Shown: positions 6,168 to 20,336, counted from the first letter of the stretch. The stretch is 64,000 bases of DNA from Deltaproteobacteria bacterium (GCA_040218735.1 JAVJQW010000023.1:448001-512000); one strand, 5' to 3'. Program-made: numbers and translations. The notes: generated from the letters alone by a model not told the origin.

Positions 6168-9100
6168 ATGTTCACGAAGAAGACCACGCCCCTCGCCGTC
6201 GCCGCTGCGCTCTGCGTCGCTCCCGCTGCGTTCGCCCAGGACGCGGACACCGACTCCATCCCCGACAACGCGGACGCGTTCCCGTGTGACCCCGCGCTCG
6301 CCGGACTCATGTTCGCGCCGGGTGAGAACCAACACGGAATGCTGCTGTTCGAAGACCTCTGGCCAGAGGTCGCCGACGAGGACTTCAACGACGTCGCCCT
6401 CGCGTACAACTACGTCTACTTCCTCGACGCCAACAGCCAGGTCGTCCGCGTGCGCGCCACGCTCACGCCGCTCGCCCTCGGCGGCCTCTACGACAACGGC
6501 CTCGGCCTCCGCCTCCCGGTCGCCGCGTCGAACGTCGCAAGTGTCACGCGCACCATCGCGGGCGCGCCCGCCGAGACGCTCACGCCGTCGTCGACGGACG
6601 CGCAGCTGACGGTCATCGTCTCCGACAACCTTCGCGAGCTCTTCGGCGGCACCGCCGGCCCGATCAACGCCGACGCGACGACCAACCGAGTGCTCGGTCA
6701 GCGCATCGTCGTGGACGTCCAGCTCAGCACGCCCGTCGCGCAGTTCAGCGGCTCGGCGCCGCACGACCTGTACATCTTCCGCCTCAGCCACCCCGGGCTG
6801 GAGATTCACCAGCGCAACTACGCCGGCACTTCGCAGATGGACATCTCGTACTTCGGGACGCAGGACGACAACTCGAGCGCGGGCAACTGGTACGTCGATC
6901 AGTTCGGCCTCCCCTCGGCGCTCGTCGTTCCGCTGAGCGCGCCGTACCCGCAGGAGCTGACATCGATCGCGACGCTCTTCCCGAACATCATCACGTGGGC
7001 GCAGTCCGGCGGGGCGCAGAACCAGGACTTCTACGCGTCGAACGTCGCGTCCGCCTACGCGTACCAGGACGCGTCGGGTCAGGGTGCGTACACGCCGCCC
7101 GCGCCCGCGTCGATCCTGCGCGACCGCACCTGCGTCGCCACCGACGTCACGTTCAACCAGAACATCACGGTCGACGCGAGCAACATCGGCACGCTCGAGG
7201 ACCAGAACTGGATCATCCCGTCGGGCGTCACCGTCACCCTGCAATACGACCAGCCCTTCCGCGTGAACGCGCTGGACGTGCAAGGTGTCTTGCAGCACGC
7301 ATCGTGCTCGCTGTCGGGCTGCTCCTCGCTCCAGATCGAAGTCGCATCGGACGCGACCATCCACCCGGGCGGCGCGATTCGTGCGGACGGGCGCGGTTAC
7401 CTCGGATCGCGCCAGGCCGGGAACGGCTACACCGCGCGCACCCGCGGCAACGTCACCGCCAACGCGAGCGCTTCGACCGGCGGATCCCACGGCGGGTTCG
7501 GCGGCGCGGGCGGCACGGTCGCCAACACCTACGACGACGTCTACCACCCCGTCTTCCCGGGCTCGGGCGGGACGAGCGCCTCCAACTCGAACGCGTCCTA
7601 CCGCGGCGGCAACGGCGGCGGTGTCATCCGCCTCGACGTCGCGGGCACGCTCGCGATCAACGGACAGATCTCCGCCAACGGCGGACGGGGCGCGGCGTAC
7701 GACTCCGGCGGCGCGGGCGGCTCCATCTGGCTGACCGCGGGCAACGTCACCTCCACGCAGACCGGCGTCGCGGTGGTCGCGAACGGCGCCTACGGCTACT
7801 ACGCCGGCGGCGGCGGCGGACGCATCGCGATCTACGGGCCGCGCTCTGGCTGGACCGTGCCTGGCCACGTGCAGGCCGAGGGCGGCACGTCGCGCTCCTC
7901 CAACCTCTACGGCGGCCCCGGAACGATCGTGTACGGCGACACCGACGCGGCTGCGCAATCCAACTTGCTCGTCGACGCGACCTCGAACCGGAACGCGAAC
8001 TACTCCGACCTCCGCGTCGGCGCGTTCGGCAACGTTACCTCGGTCTCCGCCACGACCCTGAACACCGCGCGCACGCTGGAGCCCGGCGCCCTCGCGGGCC
8101 ACACACTTCGCCCCGACGCCGAGCAGCCCGCGACGGTCACGATCGTGAACAACACCGCCACGTCGATCACGATCACCGGCGGCGACCTCACCACGATGAC
8201 CGCGGCGGGCCGCCCGTTCTACGTCACCGACTACGCGACGCAGTTCAACAGCGTCTCGATCGGCCAGACGGCTCGCGTCGACGCGGGAGTGTTCAACGTC
8301 GCGGGTGACTTCGCGATCGCGGACAGCGCGCAGCTCGACATCTACGAGATCGCAGCGGACCGGATCCTCATGACGAACAGCGCGTCGATGAACACGTTCG
8401 ACAACACCGCGCGCATCTACAGCCAGGCCGACAGCACGGTGAACACCGCGTGGACCGTCAACGCCACCACGATGACGCTAGCGAACAGCGCTCGCCTCCG
8501 TTCGTGGGCCGGCACGCTCAGCCGCATCTACCCCCTCACGATCGTCGCCACGGATCTCGACATCGGTTCGGGCACGATCGTCGAGTCGGACGGGCGCGGC
8601 TACCTCGGCTCGCGCCAGGCCGGGAACGGCTACACGGCGCGGACCTTCGGAAACAACACGGCAAACGCCAGCGCCTCCACCGGCGGTTCCCACGGCGGCT
8701 ACGGCGGCGCGGGCGGCACCGTCGCGCAGCTCTACGGCAACCCGTACTTCCCGGACACCGCGGGCACCGGCGGGACCAGCGCGTCGAACTCGAACGCGTC
8801 CTACCGCGGCGGCAACGGTGGCGGCATCCTGCGGATCAGCGTCGCGAACCTCTTCACGCTCGACGGCGTCGTCTCCGCGGGCGGCGGGCGCGGCGCGGCC
8901 TACGACTCGGGCGGCGCGGGCGGCTCCATCTGGATCGACGCAAACCAGATCCTCCGCAACACCACCGGCGTCGCGCTCCGTGTGAACGGCGCCTACGGCT
9001 ACTACGCCGGCGGCGGCGGCGGACGCGTGGCCGTCCACTACGGCCAGCTCTCCGGGTGGGTCGTCGACAGCACCACCGTGCAGGCGCTCCCGGGCACCTC

Positions 9101-11558
9101 GCGTTCGTCCAACCTCTACGGCGGGCCCGGCACCATCCTCTACCGCCAACTCAGCGAGCCCAGCGGCCGCCTCCTGATCGCGTCACCGCACAACGCGACG
9201 TACTCCGACACGCAGCTCGGCGCGTACGGCACGGTCAACGCGGTCAACGGCCAGACCCTCACGGTCTCCGGGCGCCTCGTCCCCGGCTCGCTCGTCGGCA
9301 CCACCGTCAACCCGGACACCACGCAGGGGCAGACGTTCACCGTCGCGAGCAACACGACGAACGCAATCACCGTCGTCGAAGCCGGCCTCGACGCGGCCAC
9401 CGCGGCCGGCCGTTCGTTCTCGGTGCTCGACTACCAGACGCAGTTCGAGGAGGTGATCGTCGAGGGCGACGCCAACCTGAGCGTCGGGCAGCTCACGATC
9501 AGCCAGAACCTCGTCGTCCGCGACACCGCGACGCTCGACGCCCACGACATCTTCTCGACGAACGTCGACGTCTCGGGCGGCACCGACATCTACACGCGCA
9601 CGCTGGGCGGCGACGCCATCGTCCTCGGCGGCAGCAGCCTCACGACGCTACAGGATCTCCGCTCCACGACGCTCGACCTCACCGGCAACGCGACCGTCCG
9701 CAACTGGGCGCCGACACTCGCCGCCGTGTACCCGCTCTACATTCAAGCGAACACGATGACGCAGGCGACGAACGCCTCGATCCTCACCAGCGGCCGCGGC
9801 TACCTCGGCTCGCGCCAGGGCGGCAACGGCTACACAGCGCGCACGCTCGGCAACAACACCGCGAGCGCGAGCGCGTCGACCGGCGGCTCCCACGGCGGCT
9901 ACGGCGGCGCGGGCGGCACCGTGGCGGCGACGTACGGCGACCCCGTCTGGCCGCTGACCATCGGCGGCGGCGGCACGTCGGCGTCGAACTCCAACGCCTC
10001 CTACCGCGGCGGCAACGGCGGCAGCTCGATCCACATCGTCGTCGGCGGCATCTACACCCTCGACGGCTTCGTCCGCAGCGACGGCGGGCGCGGCGCGGCC
10101 TACGACTCGGGCGGCGCGGGCGGCTCCGTGCTCATCGAGGCGGGGACCATCAACAGCTCGGCCACCGGTCACCGCGTCACCGCCAACGGCGCGTACGGCT
10201 ACTACGCCGGCGGCGGCGGCGGGCGCGTCGCGCTCCACTACGACGCGATCAACGGCTTCGCCCCGGACGACGCGATGATCAGCGTCGGCGGCGGCGGTTC
10301 GCGGTCGTCGAACCTCTACGGCGGCAGCGGGACGATCGTCGCGTGGCCGCGCGCGCAGGTGAACCCGAACCTGCTCGTCACCGCGGCGGTCAACTTCAAC
10401 GCCACGTTCGGGCGCACGCCGATCGGCGCGTTCGGCAACGTGTCGTCGGTGAACCAGACGGTGCTCACGTCGTCGCGTCACCTCGAGCCGAACGTGCTCG
10501 TCGGCTTCGACCTCGTCCCGGACGCCGAAGACCCGGCGACCACGTTCCCGATCGTCGCGAACTCCGCGACCTCGATCACCGTGCTCGGCGACATGACGGG
10601 CGCGACGAGCCCGGGGCGGCGCTGGTACGTCGAAGGTTTCTCGACCACGTGGGAGGACGTCACGTTCCGCGGCGACGTCAACGTCGAAGCGGGTCACCTC
10701 GACGTCCTCGACGAGTACCTCCAGGAGGAGCAGGCGGACCTCTACCTGAGCCACCTCGACCTCGACCTCGCGCAGATCATCGACTCGGCGGTCATCACCG
10801 GCATCCGGCTCACCGCGAACGACCTCGACACCGCCGGCAGCCCGTACCTCCTGTTGCGTCTGTTGGAGAGCGCGACGCTCGACCTCGGCGGCTCGACCCG
10901 CGTCCACGCCTGGGCCCCGAGCCTCGCGGCCGTCTACGGCCTCACGGTCCTCGCCGACACCATGTCGATGGGCACCAACGCCCACCTCGACGCGACGGCG
11001 CGCGGTTACCTCGGCTCGCGCCAGGGCGGGAACGGCTACTCCGCGCGCACGAACGGCAACGTCACCGCGAGCGGCTCCGCGTCGACCGGTGGCTCCCACG
11101 GCGGGCTCGGCGGACCGGTGTCGGGCAACGTCACGCCGACCTTCGGCAGCGCGACGCAGCCGGTGACGTTCGGCGCGGGCGGCACCAGCGCTTCGAACTC
11201 CAACGCCTCGTACCGCGGCGGCAACGGCGGCAGCGCGGTGCGCGTCATCGTCGCCGGGGCGTTTGCGTTGGACGGCCGCATCCACGCGAGCGGCGGCCGC
11301 GGCGCGGCCTACGACTCGGGCGGCGCGGGCGGCAGCGTGTGGGTCACCGCGGGCAGCCTCAACGCCTCGGGCGGACGCCTCGAAGCGAACGGCGCGTACG
11401 GCTACTACGCCGGCGGCGGCGGCGGACGCATCGCCGTCGAAGCGGCGAACGTGTCGGACTGGGCGTCGAGCGGGATCACCGCGACCGTCACCGAGGGGAC
11501 CTCGCGCTCGACCAACCTCTACGGTCAGCCCGGAACGCTCAGCCTCAACGGCGGCTGA
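6168..11558 (+). CDS. giant secreted protein: LruC/DUF4842-like domain plus four Gly-rich repeat modules
   Basis: Signal peptide; DTDSIPDNADAFPCDP (TSP3-like); LLFEDLWP..DEDFND motif; four near-identical Gly-rich blocks. Confidence 0.8.
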   Translation: MFTKKTTPLAVAAALCVAPAAFAQDADTDSIPDNADAFPCDPALAGLMFAPGENQHGMLLFEDLWPEVADEDFNDVALAYNYVYFLDANSQVVRVRATLTPLALGGLYDNGLGLRLPVAASNVASVTRTIAGAPAETLTPSSTDAQLTVIVSDNLRELFGGTAGPINADATTNRVLGQRIVVDVQLSTPVAQFSGSAPHDLYIFRLSHPGLEIHQRNYAGTSQMDISYFGTQDDNSSAGNWYVDQFGLPSALVVPLSAPYPQELTSIATLFPNIITWAQSGGAQNQDFYASNVASAYAYQDASGQGAYTPPAPASILRDRTCVATDVTFNQNITVDASNIGTLEDQNWIIPSGVTVTLQYDQPFRVNALDVQGVLQHASCSLSGCSSLQIEVASDATIHPGGAIRADGRGYLGSRQAGNGYTARTRGNVTANASASTGGSHGGFGGAGGTVANTYDDVYHPVFPGSGGTSASNSNASYRGGNGGGVIRLDVAGTLAINGQISANGGRGAAYDSGGAGGSIWLTAGNVTSTQTGVAVVANGAYGYYAGGGGGRIAIYGPRSGWTVPGHVQAEGGTSRSSNLYGGPGTIVYGDTDAAAQSNLLVDATSNRNANYSDLRVGAFGNVTSVSATTLNTARTLEPGALAGHTLRPDAEQPATVTIVNNTATSITITGGDLTTMTAAGRPFYVTDYATQFNSVSIGQTARVDAGVFNVAGDFAIADSAQLDIYEIAADRILMTNSASMNTFDNTARIYSQADSTVNTAWTVNATTMTLANSARLRSWAGTLSRIYPLTIVATDLDIGSGTIVESDGRGYLGSRQAGNGYTARTFGNNTANASASTGGSHGGYGGAGGTVAQLYGNPYFPDTAGTGGTSASNSNASYRGGNGGGILRISVANLFTLDGVVSAGGGRGAAYDSGGAGGSIWIDANQILRNTTGVALRVNGAYGYYAGGGGGRVAVHYGQLSGWVVDSTTVQALPGTSRSSNLYGGPGTILYRQLSEPSGRLLIASPHNATYSDTQLGAYGTVNAVNGQTLTVSGRLVPGSLVGTTVNPDTTQGQTFTVASNTTNAITVVEAGLDAATAAGRSFSVLDYQTQFEEVIVEGDANLSVGQLTISQNLVVRDTATLDAHDIFSTNVDVSGGTDIYTRTLGGDAIVLGGSSLTTLQDLRSTTLDLTGNATVRNWAPTLAAVYPLYIQANTMTQATNASILTSGRGYLGSRQGGNGYTARTLGNNTASASASTGGSHGGYGGAGGTVAATYGDPVWPLTIGGGGTSASNSNASYRGGNGGSSIHIVVGGIYTLDGFVRSDGGRGAAYDSGGAGGSVLIEAGTINSSATGHRVTANGAYGYYAGGGGGRVALHYDAINGFAPDDAMISVGGGGSRSSNLYGGSGTIVAWPRAQVNPNLLVTAAVNFNATFGRTPIGAFGNVSSVNQTVLTSSRHLEPNVLVGFDLVPDAEDPATTFPIVANSATSITVLGDMTGATSPGRRWYVEGFSTTWEDVTFRGDVNVEAGHLDVLDEYLQEEQADLYLSHLDLDLAQIIDSAVITGIRLTANDLDTAGSPYLLLRLLESATLDLGGSTRVHAWAPSLAAVYGLTVLADTMSMGTNAHLDATARGYLGSRQGGNGYSARTNGNVTASGSASTGGSHGGLGGPVSGNVTPTFGSATQPVTFGAGGTSASNSNASYRGGNGGSAVRVIVAGAFALDGRIHASGGRGAAYDSGGAGGSVWVTAGSLNASGGRLEANGAYGYYAGGGGGRIAVEAANVSDWASSGITATVTEGTSRSTNLYGQPGTLSLNGG
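7385..11540 (+). repeat. four intragenic repeats with ~1200-bp period
   Basis: CTCGG(A/C)TCGCGCCAG (LGSRQ) at 7401, 8604, 9804, 11010; SASNSNASYRGGNGG, GGRGAAYDSGGAGGS and NGAYGYYAGGGGGR occur in all four. Confidence 0.95.
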
Positions 11559-13823: not shown

Positions 13824-14284
13824 CTCACGCGCCGCACACGCGGCACGCCGATCCCGCCGGCGACGTCGAGAAACTCACGCAGCGGTATGGTCCCTTCAAT
13901 AGATTCGTTTCGATCGTGCACGGGCGCGTCGAGGTCGACCGCCCTCCCCTCGCGCCGACGGAAGCGACGCGTCTCGTCGATGTGCTCCGCGTGGATCAGC
14001 TGGAGCTGAACGACGCGCAACGCCTCCGGCTCCGCCGCGAGCAACGCGCGCATCCGCAGGGCGACCCCGGGCGACTCGAGCTTGCCGTCGAACGCGGCGG
14101 CCAACGCGAGGTACCGGTAGAGCTCCGCCTTCGCCTGTCGGGTCTCGGCCGCCGCGGCGAGCGCGCGGCGAATAGCCTCGAACGCGTGCGCCGGCAGCGC
14201 GAAGCGCTCCTCGGTCCCGACTTCGAGGTTCGACGTGACGACGTGCTCCAACCGATTCACGAGATCTTGTTTCGGCGGAGGCAC
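13820..14284 (-). CDS. hypothetical helical protein translationally coupled to the toxin-like gene
   Basis: GTGA stop/start overlap with the next gene; start uncertain (GTG 14284 chosen; track begins at 14323). Confidence 0.6.
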   Translation of the reverse strand: MPPPKQDLVNRLEHVVTSNLEVGTEERFALPAHAFEAIRRALAAAAETRQAKAELYRYLALAAAFDGKLESPGVALRMRALLAAEPEALRVVQLQLIHAEHIDETRRFRRREGRAVDLDAPVHDRNESIEGTIPLREFLDVAGGIGVPRVRRVR

Positions 14285-14564
14285 GAAGAACGTTGCGCGC
14301 CGCAGAACGAATACCCAAATCAATACAGATACTTACGTGGTGAGATCGAGACCCCGTCCGCCCCACCTGAACGGCGCGAGCGCCGAGCCATAGAAGTCGT
14401 CGCGATTGTCGAGACCTACGATCGTGTGTGGCGCATTCAGTGTGGGGCGAACGTCCCGGCGCCGATCTTCGACGCTGGTTCGCGGGTCGGGTGCACGTTG
14501 AACACGAACGCGCGTCCGTCGACCGTCGGTCCACAACGCAGAGCGGATGGAGGAGGCTTCGGCG

Positions 14565-15854
14565 ATGCGGCGTTCGGCCCTCCTCATCACCGCGGTCACC
14601 CTCGCCGGGTGCACCGGCAACGACCTCTTGAACCAGGTCACCGACCGCGACGCCGGTCCACGACGCGACGGTGGAGGGAACGTCTCACCGTTCGACGCCG
14701 GCTCCCTCGACGGTGGTTCGCGAGACGGCGGCAACGTGACGGACGGTGGCGCGAGGGACGGCGGCGCCGCGACGTCCTGTGGCTTCGACGCGCTCGGCGA
14801 TCCGGATCGACCGCGGGTCCTCCTCGTCGGCCACGGATTCACCGCGGACCCCAACACCCCCGGTACCCAGGTGCGCTCCATGTCGGTCGCCGCGGACGGC
14901 AACCTCGTCGACGACGGCGTCCGCGTGAACGTCGGCTTCCGCCCGGCGCGGATCGAGTTCCTCCCCTTCGGCGGCATCGCGCTGGTGCTCGGCGAAGACG
15001 GCGAAGTCGCCTCGCTCGCGGTGGACGGCGCCGCCAACGTCACGGTCGTCGACACCGTCGCGCTCGAGCCCGCGTTGTTCGGCGACCTCCGCATCGCCCC
15101 GGACGGCGAGTCCGCCTTCGCGGTGGGCTTCGACAGCTCCCCGACCGCCGGCATCTCCACCGTCCGCATCGCGTGCGACGGCCAGCTCACCGTCGACACC
15201 AACGCGTTCTTCCCGCTGCGGCTCCCGCAGTCCCTCGTCCCGGTCGGCCAAGACCGCTGGGTCATCCTCGGCGGCCAAGCGGTGTTCGACCCGATCGACG
15301 ACGACGACGTGCGCCTCCTCTCCGTCTCCGCCGGCGGCTTCACATCCGTCGTCACCGCCGACATCTACACCGACGCGATCTCCGCCGACCGCATCGCCGC
15401 CAAACACGACGGCTCGACCGTGCTGATCCCGAACAACTCGGGCTTCTCGACCAAGACCGAGCAACTCGCGATCGTCGACGTCGTCGGCGACACCCTCGTC
15501 GACCGCGGGCGCATCACGGGCCTCACCGATCCCGCCGACGTCCTGTGGTCCGCCGACGACCAGACCGCGCTCGTAGCGCTCTTCCAACCCGGCCGCGTCG
15601 CCGTGCTCGCCGACCAGGGCAACGGCCTGACCGAGGTCGACCGCATTACGGGCATCGGCCTCGCCGGGCAGATGGCTCCGATCGAGCGCGGCATGTTGAA
15701 CGGGCGCGTCTTCGTCAGCTCGGTGGACGCAAACGGCTTCCCGAACATCGCGCGCCTCGCGATCCAGGGGCCGGGGGTGGTCGTGAGCCTCGGCGACTTC
15801 GACTTCGCGGACGGCAGCGAGAACATCCCGTCGACGATCGCGGTGACGCCGTAG
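14565..15854 (+). CDS. beta-propeller lipoprotein
   Basis: GGAGGAGG RBS before ATG 14565; lipobox LAGC; RDAG/RDGG linker; repeated APDGES / SADDQTALV-type blade motifs. Confidence 0.75.
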   Translation: MRRSALLITAVTLAGCTGNDLLNQVTDRDAGPRRDGGGNVSPFDAGSLDGGSRDGGNVTDGGARDGGAATSCGFDALGDPDRPRVLLVGHGFTADPNTPGTQVRSMSVAADGNLVDDGVRVNVGFRPARIEFLPFGGIALVLGEDGEVASLAVDGAANVTVVDTVALEPALFGDLRIAPDGESAFAVGFDSSPTAGISTVRIACDGQLTVDTNAFFPLRLPQSLVPVGQDRWVILGGQAVFDPIDDDDVRLLSVSAGGFTSVVTADIYTDAISADRIAAKHDGSTVLIPNNSGFSTKTEQLAIVDVVGDTLVDRGRITGLTDPADVLWSADDQTALVALFQPGRVAVLADQGNGLTEVDRITGIGLAGQMAPIERGMLNGRVFVSSVDANGFPNIARLAIQGPGVVVSLGDFDFADGSENIPSTIAVTP

Positions 15855-15856
15855 CG

Positions 15857-16330
15857 CTACAACCGACGCAGCAGCGGGAACTTCAGGCGGTACGCGTCCT
15901 GCGCCCAGCGCGGGAGCGCCGACCAGTTCTTCTCGAGGTGCGTGATGTCCTCTTCGCCCGGCTCGATCTCCCCCGACGGGAACGCGATGGTGTGCTCGAG
16001 CGGCACGGCGATCACGTCGCCCTTGCGCCCGACGTACTTCAGGATCTCCACCCCGTCGCGCGTGCCCGAAGCGTCACGCGACTCGGCGATCTCCAGCCCC
16101 GTCACGTACGTCGACAGGTAGATCGATAGGATCTCGATCGTCTGCGCGAACCACGGGAGGCGCTCCTCGGTCTCGGCGTCGATCGCGAGGCGCCCCGACC
16201 GAATGCGGGCGTCGAGCTCCTCCGGCCCCATCGCGTCCGCGAGCGGGAAGTCCTCGTCCTCGATCGCGTCGGCGAGGTGCCCGCGCTCGACGCCGTCGAT
16301 CTCGAGGTCCATCAGATACCGATACAGCAC
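15857..16330 (-). CDS. hypothetical acidic 157-aa protein directly downstream of the retron RT (candidate effector)
   Basis: 19-bp gap after the RT stop, AGGA upstream of the GTG, coding-like composition; no family recognised. Confidence 0.7.
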   Translation of the reverse strand: MLYRYLMDLEIDGVERGHLADAIEDEDFPLADAMGPEELDARIRSGRLAIDAETEERLPWFAQTIEILSIYLSTYVTGLEIAESRDASGTRDGVEILKYVGRKGDVIAVPLEHTIAFPSGEIEPGEEDITHLEKNWSALPRWAQDAYRLKFPLLRRL

Positions 16331-16349
16331 AGAGGCATCCTAACGAGTC

Positions 16350-17558
16350 TCACCCGCCGGACCAGTCGATTCGTTCGAAGAGCGCGAGCAGCTTCCGTCC
16401 GTGCGCGGCGTGGGCCTGTGCGACGTGCGCGATCCGCCCGCGCAGGCGATCGCGAGCGTCGGCGTCCCCCCCGTCCCGCGCGAGGTTGAACAGCGTCGCC
16501 TCCAGACGTTTGCGCTCGCGCTTCGACACCGCGGGGTGTGCGTTCACGACGAGCCCGGTCACGGTCTGCCGACGGTGCGCGCGCATCCAGCGGGTCTTGG
16601 CGCGGTGGAGCGTGAAACCTTCGTCCGCGACGATCATCGCGACTGCGTCTGCGAGCGCCTCGTACGATTCGTCCGACGAGAACACGAGGTCGTCGGCGTA
16701 CCGCGTGTACGTCGCGCCGAAGCGATCCGCGAGGCCGGCCAGGCGCACGTCGAGTCGAAACGCGACGAGGTTCGCGAGGTACGGCGAGCTCGGCGCCCCC
16801 TGCGGGAGGTGACGGCCGCTGTAGATCGGCTCACGCGTGACGTGCGTCGGCGTAGTGGTCGTCGTGAGCCCCGTGAGCAGCTCGGCCACCGTCTCCGGAT
16901 AGCCGGCCGCCATGAAGACCGCGCGCACCCGACGGGCGAAGATCGACGGAAAGAACCGCCGCAAGTCGAAGCGCAGCACCAACCGACGCCCGACGTGCAT
17001 CGCGGCGTTGGTGCGGTGCGATCGGCCGCGCACATACGCGTGCGCCGCAGGGTGCACCGGGATGGATTCGAGGACGTCGCGCAGGATCCTCCGCTGGATC
17101 TTCGCGAGCTGGGCCTTCGGTGCTTCGATCAACCGCGCCCCCGCGAAGTAACGGACGTAGTGATGCAGCGGCCCCGGCGGCGCACGATCGAGGTAGCCGT
17201 TCACGTCCGCCCAACCTTCGAGCGAACGCAGCGGCATCTCGAGCCAGCGCGCGAGCTCGGCGACGTCGCAGACCGATCGCACCGGCCACCGCGGCACGTG
17301 CATGTGTGTCGCGGGGAAGAAGTACCGCGCCGGGATGGGCATCGGCTCCGCGTCCTCGTACGCCGGCAGCGCGTGGACGAACCGCCACAAAGTCTCGAAG
17401 CGCGGCGGGCGTCGGTACCGACCATGAACGGCGTCGACCACCTCCGGCAGCCACGGCGCCGGCGGCAACAACGCCGCGTGGCCAAACTCGAGCAGCCCGC
17501 GCTTCGTCCAGTCGGAGGCGAGGAACGCACGCGCGAGCGCTTGGGCGACGACGATCAT
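16350..17558 (-). CDS. retron-type reverse transcriptase
   Basis: RLIEAPK..L..IQRRIL, region X TNAAMH (NAxxH), DLRRFFPSI, LPQGAPSSP, YADD, region Y QTVTGLVVN. Confidence 0.93.
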   Translation of the reverse strand: MIVVAQALARAFLASDWTKRGLLEFGHAALLPPAPWLPEVVDAVHGRYRRPPRFETLWRFVHALPAYEDAEPMPIPARYFFPATHMHVPRWPVRSVCDVAELARWLEMPLRSLEGWADVNGYLDRAPPGPLHHYVRYFAGARLIEAPKAQLAKIQRRILRDVLESIPVHPAAHAYVRGRSHRTNAAMHVGRRLVLRFDLRRFFPSIFARRVRAVFMAAGYPETVAELLTGLTTTTTPTHVTREPIYSGRHLPQGAPSSPYLANLVAFRLDVRLAGLADRFGATYTRYADDLVFSSDESYEALADAVAMIVADEGFTLHRAKTRWMRAHRRQTVTGLVVNAHPAVSKRERKRLEATLFNLARDGGDADARDRLRGRIAHVAQAHAAHGRKLLALFERIDWSGG

Positions 17559-17560
17559 GG

Positions 17561-17715
17561 GGCGAACGCGCTCCGACTCACCGGTTGGGCCTGGCCGGTC
17601 CTACGTCGAACGGCGTAGTGGAGGCCAGGCGACGAACCGTTCTACTCATCACGCAACCCTGGAGGAGCCCCAGAGCCGAGGTTCGAAGACCTCGCGATAC
17701 TCGGAGCGCGCCGCC
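17561..17715 (-). ncRNA. retron msr-msd non-coding RNA
   Basis: Perfect 10-bp a1/a2 inverted repeat CGCGCTCCGA (17567-17576) / TCGGAGCGCG (17701-17710); minus-strand G at 17700 next to the stem; msr hairpins 17677-17694 and 17657-17675; msd hairpin 17589-17630, extendable to 17582-17639; lies immediately 5' of the RT. Confidence 0.82.
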
Positions 17716-17758
17716 GCCGGGGAGCCTACCGCATCTGTCCCGGTTGCGTCGTACCGCG

Positions 17759-18409
17759 TCAGGGGCGCGTCGCGATCCAGATGACGTGGTCGCTCCGGTC
17801 GAGGCCGCCGGAGCGCACGATCTCGACGCGTACGCCGAAGCCGCGTGACTCCAGCCGCGCCGTGAATGCGTCGTTGGGTTGCGCGGACCACACCGCGAGG
17901 ACGCCGCCGGGCTGGAGCGCGTCGAACGCCGCGTCGAGGCCCGACGTCGCGTAGAGGTGATCGTTATCCGCGCGCGTGAGGCCTTCAGGGCCGTTGTCGA
18001 CGTCGAGGAGGATGACGTCCCACTTCGCCGACCGCATCACGACGCCGACGTCGTCGGTCACGACGGTCACGCGCGGATCGTCGAGCGCGCGGTTCGACAC
18101 GACACCGAGGGGACCCTGGTTCCAGCGAACGACGGCCGGCACGAGCTCCGCGACGTGGACCCGCGCGTCTTCGCCGAGCTGGTCCAGCGCGGCGCGGAGC
18201 GTGAGCCCCATACCTAGACCACCGATCAAGATCAAACGGGTGTCCGCCGTGCACGTGAGCCGTGCGAGGGCGAGCTCGGAGTCGTGCACGCGCGAGTCCA
18301 TCAGGCGTCGGTGGTCGATGAAGATGGCGAAGTCGTCGTCGCGACGGTGCAGCGACAACACCCCCTCGCCCCCGGGCACGGGCGAGGAATCGATCAGCTC
18401 CCAGACCAC
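17759..18409 (-). CDS. spermidine synthase-like SAM-dependent methyltransferase
   Basis: LMDSR.H.SE, LIGGLGMGLT, AELVPAV, DVILLDVDNGP, GGVLAVWS. Confidence 0.85.
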   Translation of the reverse strand: MVWELIDSSPVPGGEGVLSLHRRDDDFAIFIDHRRLMDSRVHDSELALARLTCTADTRLILIGGLGMGLTLRAALDQLGEDARVHVAELVPAVVRWNQGPLGVVSNRALDDPRVTVVTDDVGVVMRSAKWDVILLDVDNGPEGLTRADNDHLYATSGLDAAFDALQPGGVLAVWSAQPNDAFTARLESRGFGVRVEIVRSGGLDRSDHVIWIATRP

Positions 18410-18442
18410 CCGGCGGAACTTACACCGTCCGGCTCCGGTCGG

Positions 18443-19351
18443 TCAGGCCGGTTGAGCTGCGCCGGCGCGGTAGAACGCGGGCGCTTCGCCGACGGCGCGT
18501 TTGAACGCACGCGAGAAAGCGAACTCCGACGTGTACCCCACACGTTCGGCGATCTGGGCGAGGGTGTCGTCCGTGGTGCGGAGCAGCTCGGCGCCGCGCG
18601 CCATCCGCAGGCGCGTGAGGTAGCCGAGCGGCGTGTCGCCGAGTGTGTCGCGGAAGCGACGCGCAAACGCCGGCCGCGACATCGTCGCGACGCGGGCGAG
18701 CGACGTGACGGACCAGGACGCCTCCGGCTGCTCGTGCATCGCCGCGAGGGAGCGCGCGAGCCGCTTGTCGCGCATCGCGCCGACCCACCCCGAGTCGGGC
18801 GCCTCGTTCTCGACCCAGTGGCGGACGACGTAGACGAGGAACGCCTCGAGGAGCAGCTCGACGACCGCGGACCGCCCCGGCGACTCGTCGCGGAGCTCGG
18901 CGAGCAACAGTCGCAGACAGGGCGACAGCGAGGGGCAGCACTGGATGATCTCCGCGCGGATGTGAATGAGCTCCGGCATCTCGCGGAGGAGCGGGTGAAG
19001 ACCGCGCAGGTCAGAGCCGAGCTTCTGGGCGGCGCACACGATGCGTGCGTTGACCGGCACGTCGTGGGTCGGCGCGGCCGCGAGGAACTGGTCGAGGGGC
19101 TGGGCGCGCCGGCGCGGAGCATCGGCGATCGTGTGCTTCGCGCCGCGCGGGAGGAGCGCGACGTCGCCTTGCAAGAGCTTCACGGCGGGGTCGCGTCCGA
19201 CGCGCAACCAACATTCGCCGCTCTCGACGAAGTGCAGGCCGGCCGTGGCGCCACCGTCGAGCTGAACGCCCCAGGCGCCCCGATACTCGTGTCGGCTGAG
19301 GATGACCGGCTTGGAGCCGCCGCGGAGGATGTCGCTCAAGACGTCCATCAT
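18443..19351 (-). CDS. AraC family transcriptional regulator (cupin + HTH)
   Basis: MDVLSDIL start, LHFVESGECWL, WSVTSLA..MSRPAFARRF, VGYTSEFAFSRAFKR; divergent from the NmrA-like gene. Confidence 0.93.
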   Translation of the reverse strand: MMDVLSDILRGGSKPVILSRHEYRGAWGVQLDGGATAGLHFVESGECWLRVGRDPAVKLLQGDVALLPRGAKHTIADAPRRRAQPLDQFLAAAPTHDVPVNARIVCAAQKLGSDLRGLHPLLREMPELIHIRAEIIQCCPSLSPCLRLLLAELRDESPGRSAVVELLLEAFLVYVVRHWVENEAPDSGWVGAMRDKRLARSLAAMHEQPEASWSVTSLARVATMSRPAFARRFRDTLGDTPLGYLTRLRMARGAELLRTTDDTLAQIAERVGYTSEFAFSRAFKRAVGEAPAFYRAGAAQPA

Positions 19352-19478
19352 TTGACGATGTCAGCGGCATCACCGTTTGTCTACGCGTTGAGCGTTCTGG
19401 ATAGGCCGACGCGAGCCTCGAACATGGTCGACCTCGACCGCGGCGCCTAACTTCGAGGCACAAAGGAGCCACACTGAA

Positions 19479-20336
19479 ATGACCAAGATTCTCGTCCTAG
19501 GTTCAACCGGAACGGTCGGCGCCGGCCTCGTGGAGGGCCTCGTCGCGCGCGGCGCCGACGTTCGCGCCGCGACACGCAGCCCCGGCGGCTACGCAGGCCC
19601 GCGCGGTGCGACCCCCGTCGCGTTCGATGCGACCAACCCCGAGACGTACGGACAGGCGCTCGACGGCGTCGACCGTGTGTTCCTCCTCTCGCCTCCCGGC
19701 CACGCCGACGCCCACGCGCTCCTCGCGCCCGTCGTCGAGGCGAGCGTGGCCGCGGGTGTGAAGCGCATCGTCACGATGACGGCGATGGGCGTCGACGCCA
19801 GCGACGAGATCCCGCTGCGGCGTCTGGAGCTCGCGGTCGAAGCGACCGGCGTCCCGTTCGCGCATCTGCGACCGAACTGGTTCGATCAGAACTTCCACAC
19901 GTTCTGGTACGAGCCGATCGCCAAGGCCGGCGTCATCCCGCTCCCCGCCGCGGACGCCAAGACCTCGTTCATCGATGCTCGCGACATCTCGGCCTCCGCC
20001 GTCGCCGCGCTCCTCGACGAAGGTGTCACGCAGAAGGCGTACACACTGACCGGCCCCGCGGCGCTAACCTACGCCGAGGCCGCGGCGATCCTCTCGAACG
20101 TCGGCGGACGGACGATCCAGTACGTGGACACGGACGAGGGGACGTTCGCGGAGAACCTCTCCGGAGCGGGGCTGCCGAGCGACTACGCCCAGCTGCTCGT
20201 CGGCCTCTTCCAGGTCGTGCGCGCGGGCGCGGCTGCCCCGGTGACCGGCGACGTGGAGCGGCTGACGAAGTCGAAGCCGCGCAGCGTCCGCCAGTACGCG
20301 CAGGACCACGCCGAAAAGTTCCGCACGCAGCTCTGA
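19479..20336 (+). CDS. NmrA-like NAD(P)H-binding oxidoreductase
   Basis: ILVLGSTGTVG Rossmann motif, LRPNWFDQN, FIDARDI; AAGGAG RBS. Confidence 0.9.
   Translation: MTKILVLGSTGTVGAGLVEGLVARGADVRAATRSPGGYAGPRGATPVAFDATNPETYGQALDGVDRVFLLSPPGHADAHALLAPVVEASVAAGVKRIVTMTAMGVDASDEIPLRRLELAVEATGVPFAHLRPNWFDQNFHTFWYEPIAKAGVIPLPAADAKTSFIDARDISASAVAALLDEGVTQKAYTLTGPAALTYAEAAAILSNVGGRTIQYVDTDEGTFAENLSGAGLPSDYAQLLVGLFQVVRAGAAAPVTGDVERLTKSKPRSVRQYAQDHAEKFRTQL

Follow-up and report, generated by a model that had tools for sequence, protein, structure and literature searches.

A probable two-part retron of the stand-alone reverse transcriptase clade 11 in a deltaproteobacterial genome

Introduction

An earlier note, made from the sequence of a Deltaproteobacteria bacterium (GCA_040218735.1 JAVJQW010000023.1:448001-512000), had read a complete retron on the minus strand, consisting of an msr-msd RNA followed by a reverse transcriptase (RT) gene. 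This locus raises three linked questions: whether the RNA and the RT do form a retron, to which lineage such a retron would belong, and whether an effector gene accompanies it. We have addressed them in the whole 64,000-nt stretch, hereafter the window, in whose coordinates all positions are given. Anti-phage activity is common among retrons, a generality that does not derive from this element or its clade.

Retron RTs have been divided into 11 clades by Mestre et al. 2020 (PMC7736814), who predicted msr-msd structures in eight of them, clade 11 included. According to the same paper, the 16 validated retrons are distributed over six of these clades; its Table 1 gives clade 11 neither a type nor a described retron. 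The SPIRE retron survey (PMC13712802) splits this clade into clade11-A/B, with two msr/msd families and the corresponding models OutgroupA and OutgroupB. A search of the literature for clade-11 msDNA or stand-alone actinobacterial retrons returned nothing beyond these two sources.

Results

The reverse transcriptase groups with retron RTs

The RT ORF is open throughout, and its GC content by codon position (0.72/0.51/0.88) is like that of neighbouring real genes. The motifs announced in the earlier note are all there, NAAMH at residues 184-188, YADD at 287-290 and VTG at 333-335, and none of the 91 aligned relatives departs from H188, Y287, D289, D290 or G335. Pfam RVT_1 matches the protein with an E value of 5.8e-17. 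In PADLOC, RT_other ranks first with 426.7 bits, then RT_outgroup with 400.5 bits over profile positions 7-407 of 407, followed by RT_XIII with 293.9 bits, and every other type scores 219.5 bits or less. NCBIfam retron models, which are models of other retron lineages, remain under their cut-offs (retron_St85_RT, 188.6 versus 235 bits). Among PDB sequences, all 14 matches with E < 1e-10 are retron RTs, with Ec86 as the best (5.3e-30) and Drt2 at 22 bits; these matches cover the protein only from residue ~116-142 on. An AlphaFold2 model built from a 91-sequence alignment reached a pLDDT of 95.7 and a pTM of 0.88, and every chain that Foldseek listed from rank 1 to rank 18 was a retron RT.

Two parts can be distinguished in the protein, a helical, clade-specific N-terminal extension (residues 1 to ~94) and a retron-type RT (~95 to 402). 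Searched against the ESM Atlas, the N-terminal domain (1-135) resembles RTs of the same family only (TM 0.59 over 1-95), and its ESM Atlas feature scores, none higher than 0.83, do not rise above chance. No domain of known family was found fused to the RT. The ranking of profiles would place this RT in clade 11 and not in a typed clade, 'RT_outgroup' being equated with clade 11 through matching names in PMC13712802. As a control of the ranking, the second RT of the same genome was assigned to RT_XIII (517.5 bits versus 311.9 for RT_other).

ARAGORN reported a 'tRNA-Gly(gcc)' at 17407-17502 on the minus strand. Its length of 96 nt, its position within the RT ORF and the failure of Rfam to find a tRNA there at E ≤ 10 mark it as a probable false positive.

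Anatomy of the RNA upstream of the RT

Read on the minus strand, all the msr-msd elements of the earlier note were found where it had placed them (Table 1). The arms CGCGCTCCGA (a2) and TCGGAGCGCG (a1) are separated by 124 nt. G17700, directly after a2, faces G17577, directly before a1, and the ATG of the RT is located at 17558, 8 nt past a1, both as previously described. The a1 arm contains GGAG, 12 nt before this ATG, which is possibly a ribosome binding site. Between the arms, two msr hairpins precede the msd; the second, which reads CUCUGGGG-CUC-CUCCAGGG in the RNA, is probably the one recognised by the RT. In the msd, the main stem GCCTGGCC...GGCCAGGC occupies 17630-17589 with an inner hairpin CTACG/CGTAG, and is extended outwards by CGGTT/AACCG (17639-17635 / 17586-17582).

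Table 1. Coordinates of the retron features and of the adjoining gene in the window
Feature	Position	Strand	Evidence or description
msr-msd ncRNA gene	17565..17712	-	full-length match to covariance model R1 (79.6 bits, E 1.2e-14, model 1-158 of 158)
a2 arm, 5' half of closing stem	17701..17710	-	perfect 10-nt inverted repeat with 17567-17576
Branching G (predicted); its 2'-OH would prime cDNA	17700	-	first base after a2; priming role predicted from retron biology
msr hairpin 1, variable	17677..17694	-	CGAGGT (17694-17689)-CTTCGA-ACCTCG (17682-17677)
msr hairpin 2	17657..17675	-	DNA CTCTGGGG-CTC-CTCCAGGG; 8 bp, two G-U pairs
msd stem-loop, msDNA template	17582..17639	-	sequence reading and minimum free energy (MFE) fold
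G opposite the branching G; predicted reverse-transcription start, at or next to this base	17577	-	near-invariant in alignment
a1 arm, 3' half of closing stem	17567..17576	-	perfect 10-nt repeat with a2
Retron RT, 402 aa	16350..17558	-	intact ORF, Pfam, PADLOC, PDB, AlphaFold2, Foldseek
P0002, 157 aa, acidic	15857-16330	-	19 nt downstream of RT; GC3 0.95, clearly coding

The MFE fold of 17720-17560 displays the same layout. Here 17715-17701 pair with 17576-17561, which makes the closing stem 15 bp long with a single bulge, and this pairing of the flanks lengthens the ncRNA to about 17715-17561. The fold has an energy of -83.4 kcal/mol (z = -2.87), and none of 200 shuffled sequences folds as well. 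An inverted-repeat scan found 15 inverted pairs within 501 bases of this 70% GC DNA, so that the 10-nt repeat is by itself weak evidence. The ncRNA stands above chance because it is conserved and covaries across homologous loci, as detailed below.

At E ≤ 10, Rfam gave seven matches in the region 14000-20000, none of them in 17560-17720 and none to a retron family. No sigma-70-like promoter was detected by scanning 15700-18500. In the same interval a terminator scan yielded a single terminator-like site, located inside the RT ORF, which is no more than chance gives.

A conserved and covarying RNA family

At least 598 relatives of the RT are encoded in a collection of species genomes (598 among 600 pattern matches listed encode one), from which the best 80 were fetched. 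Members of the clade are found in Actinomycetota, Pseudomonadota and further phyla, from soil and aquatic environments. One frame, ...CTCCAA-G / CTCG-TTGGAG..., recurred when the upstream regions were scanned for inverted repeats; it spans 130-172 nt, and its outer sequences differ from locus to locus. An alignment of 34 upstream regions, including that of the window, was made; helix 1 had been picked by this same scan and helices 2-4 had not, so that the alignment leans towards structure at helix 1. RNAalifold predicted 31 pairs for these 34 loci, 27 of them with compensatory change. In this alignment 95.5% of the cells are paired, versus 82.1% in shuffled alignments (0 of 500 reach the observed value) and 34-51% when the partners are slid.

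We constructed a covariance model (R1) from the 34-locus alignment and ran it over 93 sources at E ≤ 0.01. It produced 81 matches, 80 of which are full-length, one per source, on the strand of the RT and just upstream of it; the remaining match is partial, antisense, and located in L039. The full-length matches comprise 75 of the 80 loci of the genome_contigs set, which belong to several phyla, the window itself and four loci in related genomes, and 46 of the 80 come from outside the set used to build the model. In the 11.6-Mb source genome, R1 matches only the RNA of the window. Five loci have no R1 match, namely L002, which lacks upstream DNA, and the actinomycetotal L022, L033, L069 and L080. 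Four other Actinomycetota loci (L037, L053, L071 and L076) match weakly, at 26-30 bits; the Actinomycetota loci matching R1 weakly or not at all may represent a second structural family of clade-11 ncRNAs.

The model-fitted alignment has 81 rows and, being fitted to R1, also leans towards structure; 95.4% of its cells are paired and 28 of the 31 pairs show compensatory change. Such changes occur at all 12 pairs of the a2/a1 helix across loci, and at all 11 pairs of helices 3 and 4 (msd), which are 93.8% and 94.0% paired. Helix 2, corresponding to msr hairpin 2, is 99.1% paired. No other element of the RNA is as conserved as this hairpin, whose consensus is CUCUGGGG-UUA-CCCCAGGG and whose core G and C columns keep the same letter in 77-80 of 80 rows. 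The branching G is found in 78 of the 78 rows that have a letter at alignment column 16 (80 rows examined); at column 227, 79 of 80 rows have the opposing G. Covariation among homologous upstream regions was the check that the earlier note had proposed, and the structure is indeed conserved with compensatory change in 80 of the 93 sources. As judged from these sequence comparisons, the ncRNA is one conserved family and not a chance fold.

Close relatives, metagenomes and a second retron

The same RNA and RT are present in a genome of the same genus (G001), with 64% amino acid identity between the RTs by HMMER and 63% by tblastn. The closing arms are changed there on both sides, from CTCCGA:TCGGAG to CCCCGA:TCGGGG. 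Hairpin 1 of this genome, CGAGC-GUA-GCUCG, is unlike that of the window, and the msd interior is also swapped for other hairpins, with the overall fold kept. A convergent 273-aa Sel1-repeat gene (L101:1141-1962, plus strand) lies in G001 between the RT and a homologue of P0002; it is absent from the window and was either inserted in G001 or deleted here.

In three other metagenome studies, DNA contigs match the locus at 95-99% identity. The 33 differences listed are all in the RT ORF (16470-17471) and none is in the ncRNA, which contigs X2 and X3 span throughout. By rough arithmetic about four differences would be expected in the ncRNA, and their absence is therefore a weak hint of constraint. 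A metatranscriptome (X18) contains two 151-nt contigs at depth 2, both within the RT ORF and none on the ncRNA; like the DNA runs, it consists of contigs only, which are uninformative on expression and on any excess of msDNA.

The source genome harbours a second retron, of type XIII, outside the window (G000 contig C8, L102:5060-8497). Its RT of 427 aa scores 517.5 bits with RT_XIII, and the adjoining 602-aa protein 481.2 bits with SWIM_XIII. A TAG was flagged inside the tblastn match to this RT, yet the 427-aa ORF is open.

Genes around the retron

For 81 loci, the ORFs of at least 70 aa lying up to 4.5 kb from the RT were clustered. No conserved neighbour gene emerged, the largest of the flanking families being present in 10 loci. 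The top families (sigma-54 regulators, histidine kinases and ABC transporters) are generic paralogues. In the window, the neighbours are ordinary regulators and enzymes, including an AraC regulator, methyltransferases and dehydrogenases. No retron-effector model for the type-defining effectors of the tripartite types I-XIII matches P0002, the upstream gene P0003 or nine other neighbours, and none of nine window neighbours has a PADLOC match at E ≤ 1e-5. The sole PADLOC match among the neighbours is a weak one (E 5.1e-05) between P0003, a spermidine-synthase-like methyltransferase, and the methyltransferase model mad2. An ORF of 1796 aa at 6168-11558 (plus strand) has an N-terminal DUF4842 as its sole Pfam match.

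We also considered the retron as an insertion between orthologous flanks. This reading was rejected because P0003 is not orthologous to the methyltransferases found beside P0002 homologues in the related genomes G011 and G006 (E 0.63 and 40).

Weighing the alternatives

A three-part retron with P0002 as its effector would be in keeping with several features of the locus: the gene is on the strand of the RT after the 19-nt gap, has AGGA 8-11 nt before its GTG, is clearly coding by its GC3 and belongs to no family known to Pfam, PADLOC or NCBIfam, and its 87%-identical homologue in G001 is also near the RT. Its distribution speaks against this reading. P0002 homologues are limited to five of 41 related genomes, at 48-87% identity, and in G011, G006 and G009 no RT homologue was found in the 9-15 kb around them; RT matches lie only elsewhere in G011 and G006, and the search gave none in G009. 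In G011 and G006 the homologue comes last, preceded by a PilZ response regulator gene and one for a small methyltransferase, and even in G001 the convergent Sel1-repeat gene parts it from the RT. A P0002-like neighbour was seen in none of the 80 genome_contigs loci, and the window ORFs are in none of the flank clusters listed. P0002 is thus a resident gene and not an effector, since in three genomes no RT was found near its homologue and in G001 the homologue is separated from the RT. We consider the three-part reading highly improbable.

It could also be that this RT is related to retron RTs without making a classical 2'-5' branched msDNA, the RNA acting as a scaffold or another kind of template, as in systems of the DRT2 or DRT9 type, or as a leader for RT translation. 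The empty entry of clade 11 in Table 1 of Mestre et al., the confinement of the validated retrons to six clades and the overlap of a1 with a possible ribosome binding site would fit such a reading. The geometry a2-G...G-a1, with both G residues near-invariant, is nevertheless the signature of branch priming, and the legend of Fig. 2 in PMC7736814 describes retron ncRNAs with 'two opposing G residues'. By sequence and by fold, moreover, the RT groups with msDNA-making retron RTs, far above Drt2. Retrons from every RT clade have been synthesised by Khan et al. (bioRxiv 10.1101/2024.01.25.577267), whose clade-level results give high RT-DNA in clades 2, 9 and 10, none in clades 3 and 4, with intermediate amounts otherwise. 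A retron-like RT without branched product is on balance quite improbable. As for a decaying, non-functional relic, which the lack of an effector, of a defence neighbourhood and of a recognisable promoter might suggest, it is exceedingly improbable: the ORF of 402 codons is uninterrupted and retains all the catalytic and retron motifs, the ncRNA matches its model over the full length, the metagenome differences spare the ncRNA, and the G001 copy keeps the structure by compensatory change.

Discussion

The locus from 16350 to about 17715 on the minus strand is, with a probability that we put at roughly 0.88, an intact two-part retron whose RT falls in the 'outgroup' or stand-alone lineage, clade 11 of Mestre et al. 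2020. The retron reading of the earlier note is borne out both by the RT, through its family, motifs and fold, and by the RNA, through its layout and the compensatory changes upstream of homologous RTs. The word complete stands for the two-part cassette of ncRNA and RT; it goes too far beyond that, since no effector gene is linked. A cassette without linked effector fits the stand-alone clade 11 as Mestre et al. (PMC7736814) present it. The lineage is a known one, already catalogued as clade 11 without partner effector, and the locus adds one member to it and no new kind of system.

Among the features tested, nothing distinguishes this retron from the other stand-alone retrons of clade 11: the RT matches PADLOC RT_other and RT_outgroup best and over their full length, the msr-msd is located directly upstream, and there is no effector. 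Retron-Eco5 (Ec107), from the stand-alone branch of RT clade 2, likewise consists of ncRNA and RT only, without cis effector and, in the account of PMC7736814, with its function unsolved. It belongs, however, to another RT clade (RT_Ec107-like, 189.5 versus 426.7 bits), and the RT of the window is longer by ~95 residues at its N-terminus. Type XIII retrons (Mx162, Mx65 and Ne144; RT clade 10) represent the next-best PADLOC type. The type XIII RT of the source genome is 37% identical to the RT of the window over residues 95-398, whereas the first ~94 residues do not align, and the SWIM-domain partner of this type, found beside the genome's other RT, is absent at the window locus. The closest solved structure is that of the Retron-Eco1 (Ec86) RT (7v9x, 7v9u), which shares the fold (TM 0.77, target-normalised) at 26% identity, with a sequence E value of 5e-30 over residues 142-398. 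In contrast to our RT, Ec86 lacks the N-terminal extension; its ncRNA is unrelated, and Table 1 of PMC7736814 lists it as type II-A3 with an NDT effector.

By analogy with known retrons, the element might work as follows. A single transcript would carry the msr-msd RNA of ~150 nt and then the RT ORF. The a1/a2 stem would close the RNA, and the RT would bind it, probably via the near-invariant CUGGGG-triloop-CCCCAG msr hairpin. The 2'-OH of G17700 would then prime cDNA at or next to G17577, and synthesis would run back through the msd stem-loop and halt before the msr. The expected product, an msDNA of branched RNA and DNA, would measure roughly 60-80 nt and remain attached to the RT; the 65-80 nt predicted in the earlier note for the branched msDNA are a reasonable expectation from the same analogy. 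Lacking an effector in cis, the element may rely on an unlinked partner, use the N-terminal domain of its RT, or have a role besides abortive-infection defence.

The N-terminal domain of ~94 residues is conserved and confidently folded, and the ESM Atlas search found no relative of it outside the RT family. Clade-11 retrons could be self-sufficient, with this domain as an output or sensor module, or their msDNA-RT particle could have a cellular role besides abortive-infection defence; we offer this pair of alternatives tentatively and regard it as rather unlikely. If true, either alternative would account for a lineage of at least 598 copies in many phyla that has never kept a cis effector.

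The locus provides a well-documented intact example of the effector-less clade-11 retrons. Our alignment of 80 loci and the covariance model show which parts of the RNA are invariant (both G residues as well as the hairpin CUGGGG-triloop-CCCCAG) and which are free to vary (hairpin 1, the interior of the msd and the sequence of a1/a2). This map offers information for designing msDNA assays or editing templates in clade 11. With a type XIII retron and its SWIM partner also encoded in this genome, both kinds of retron could be compared in one host.
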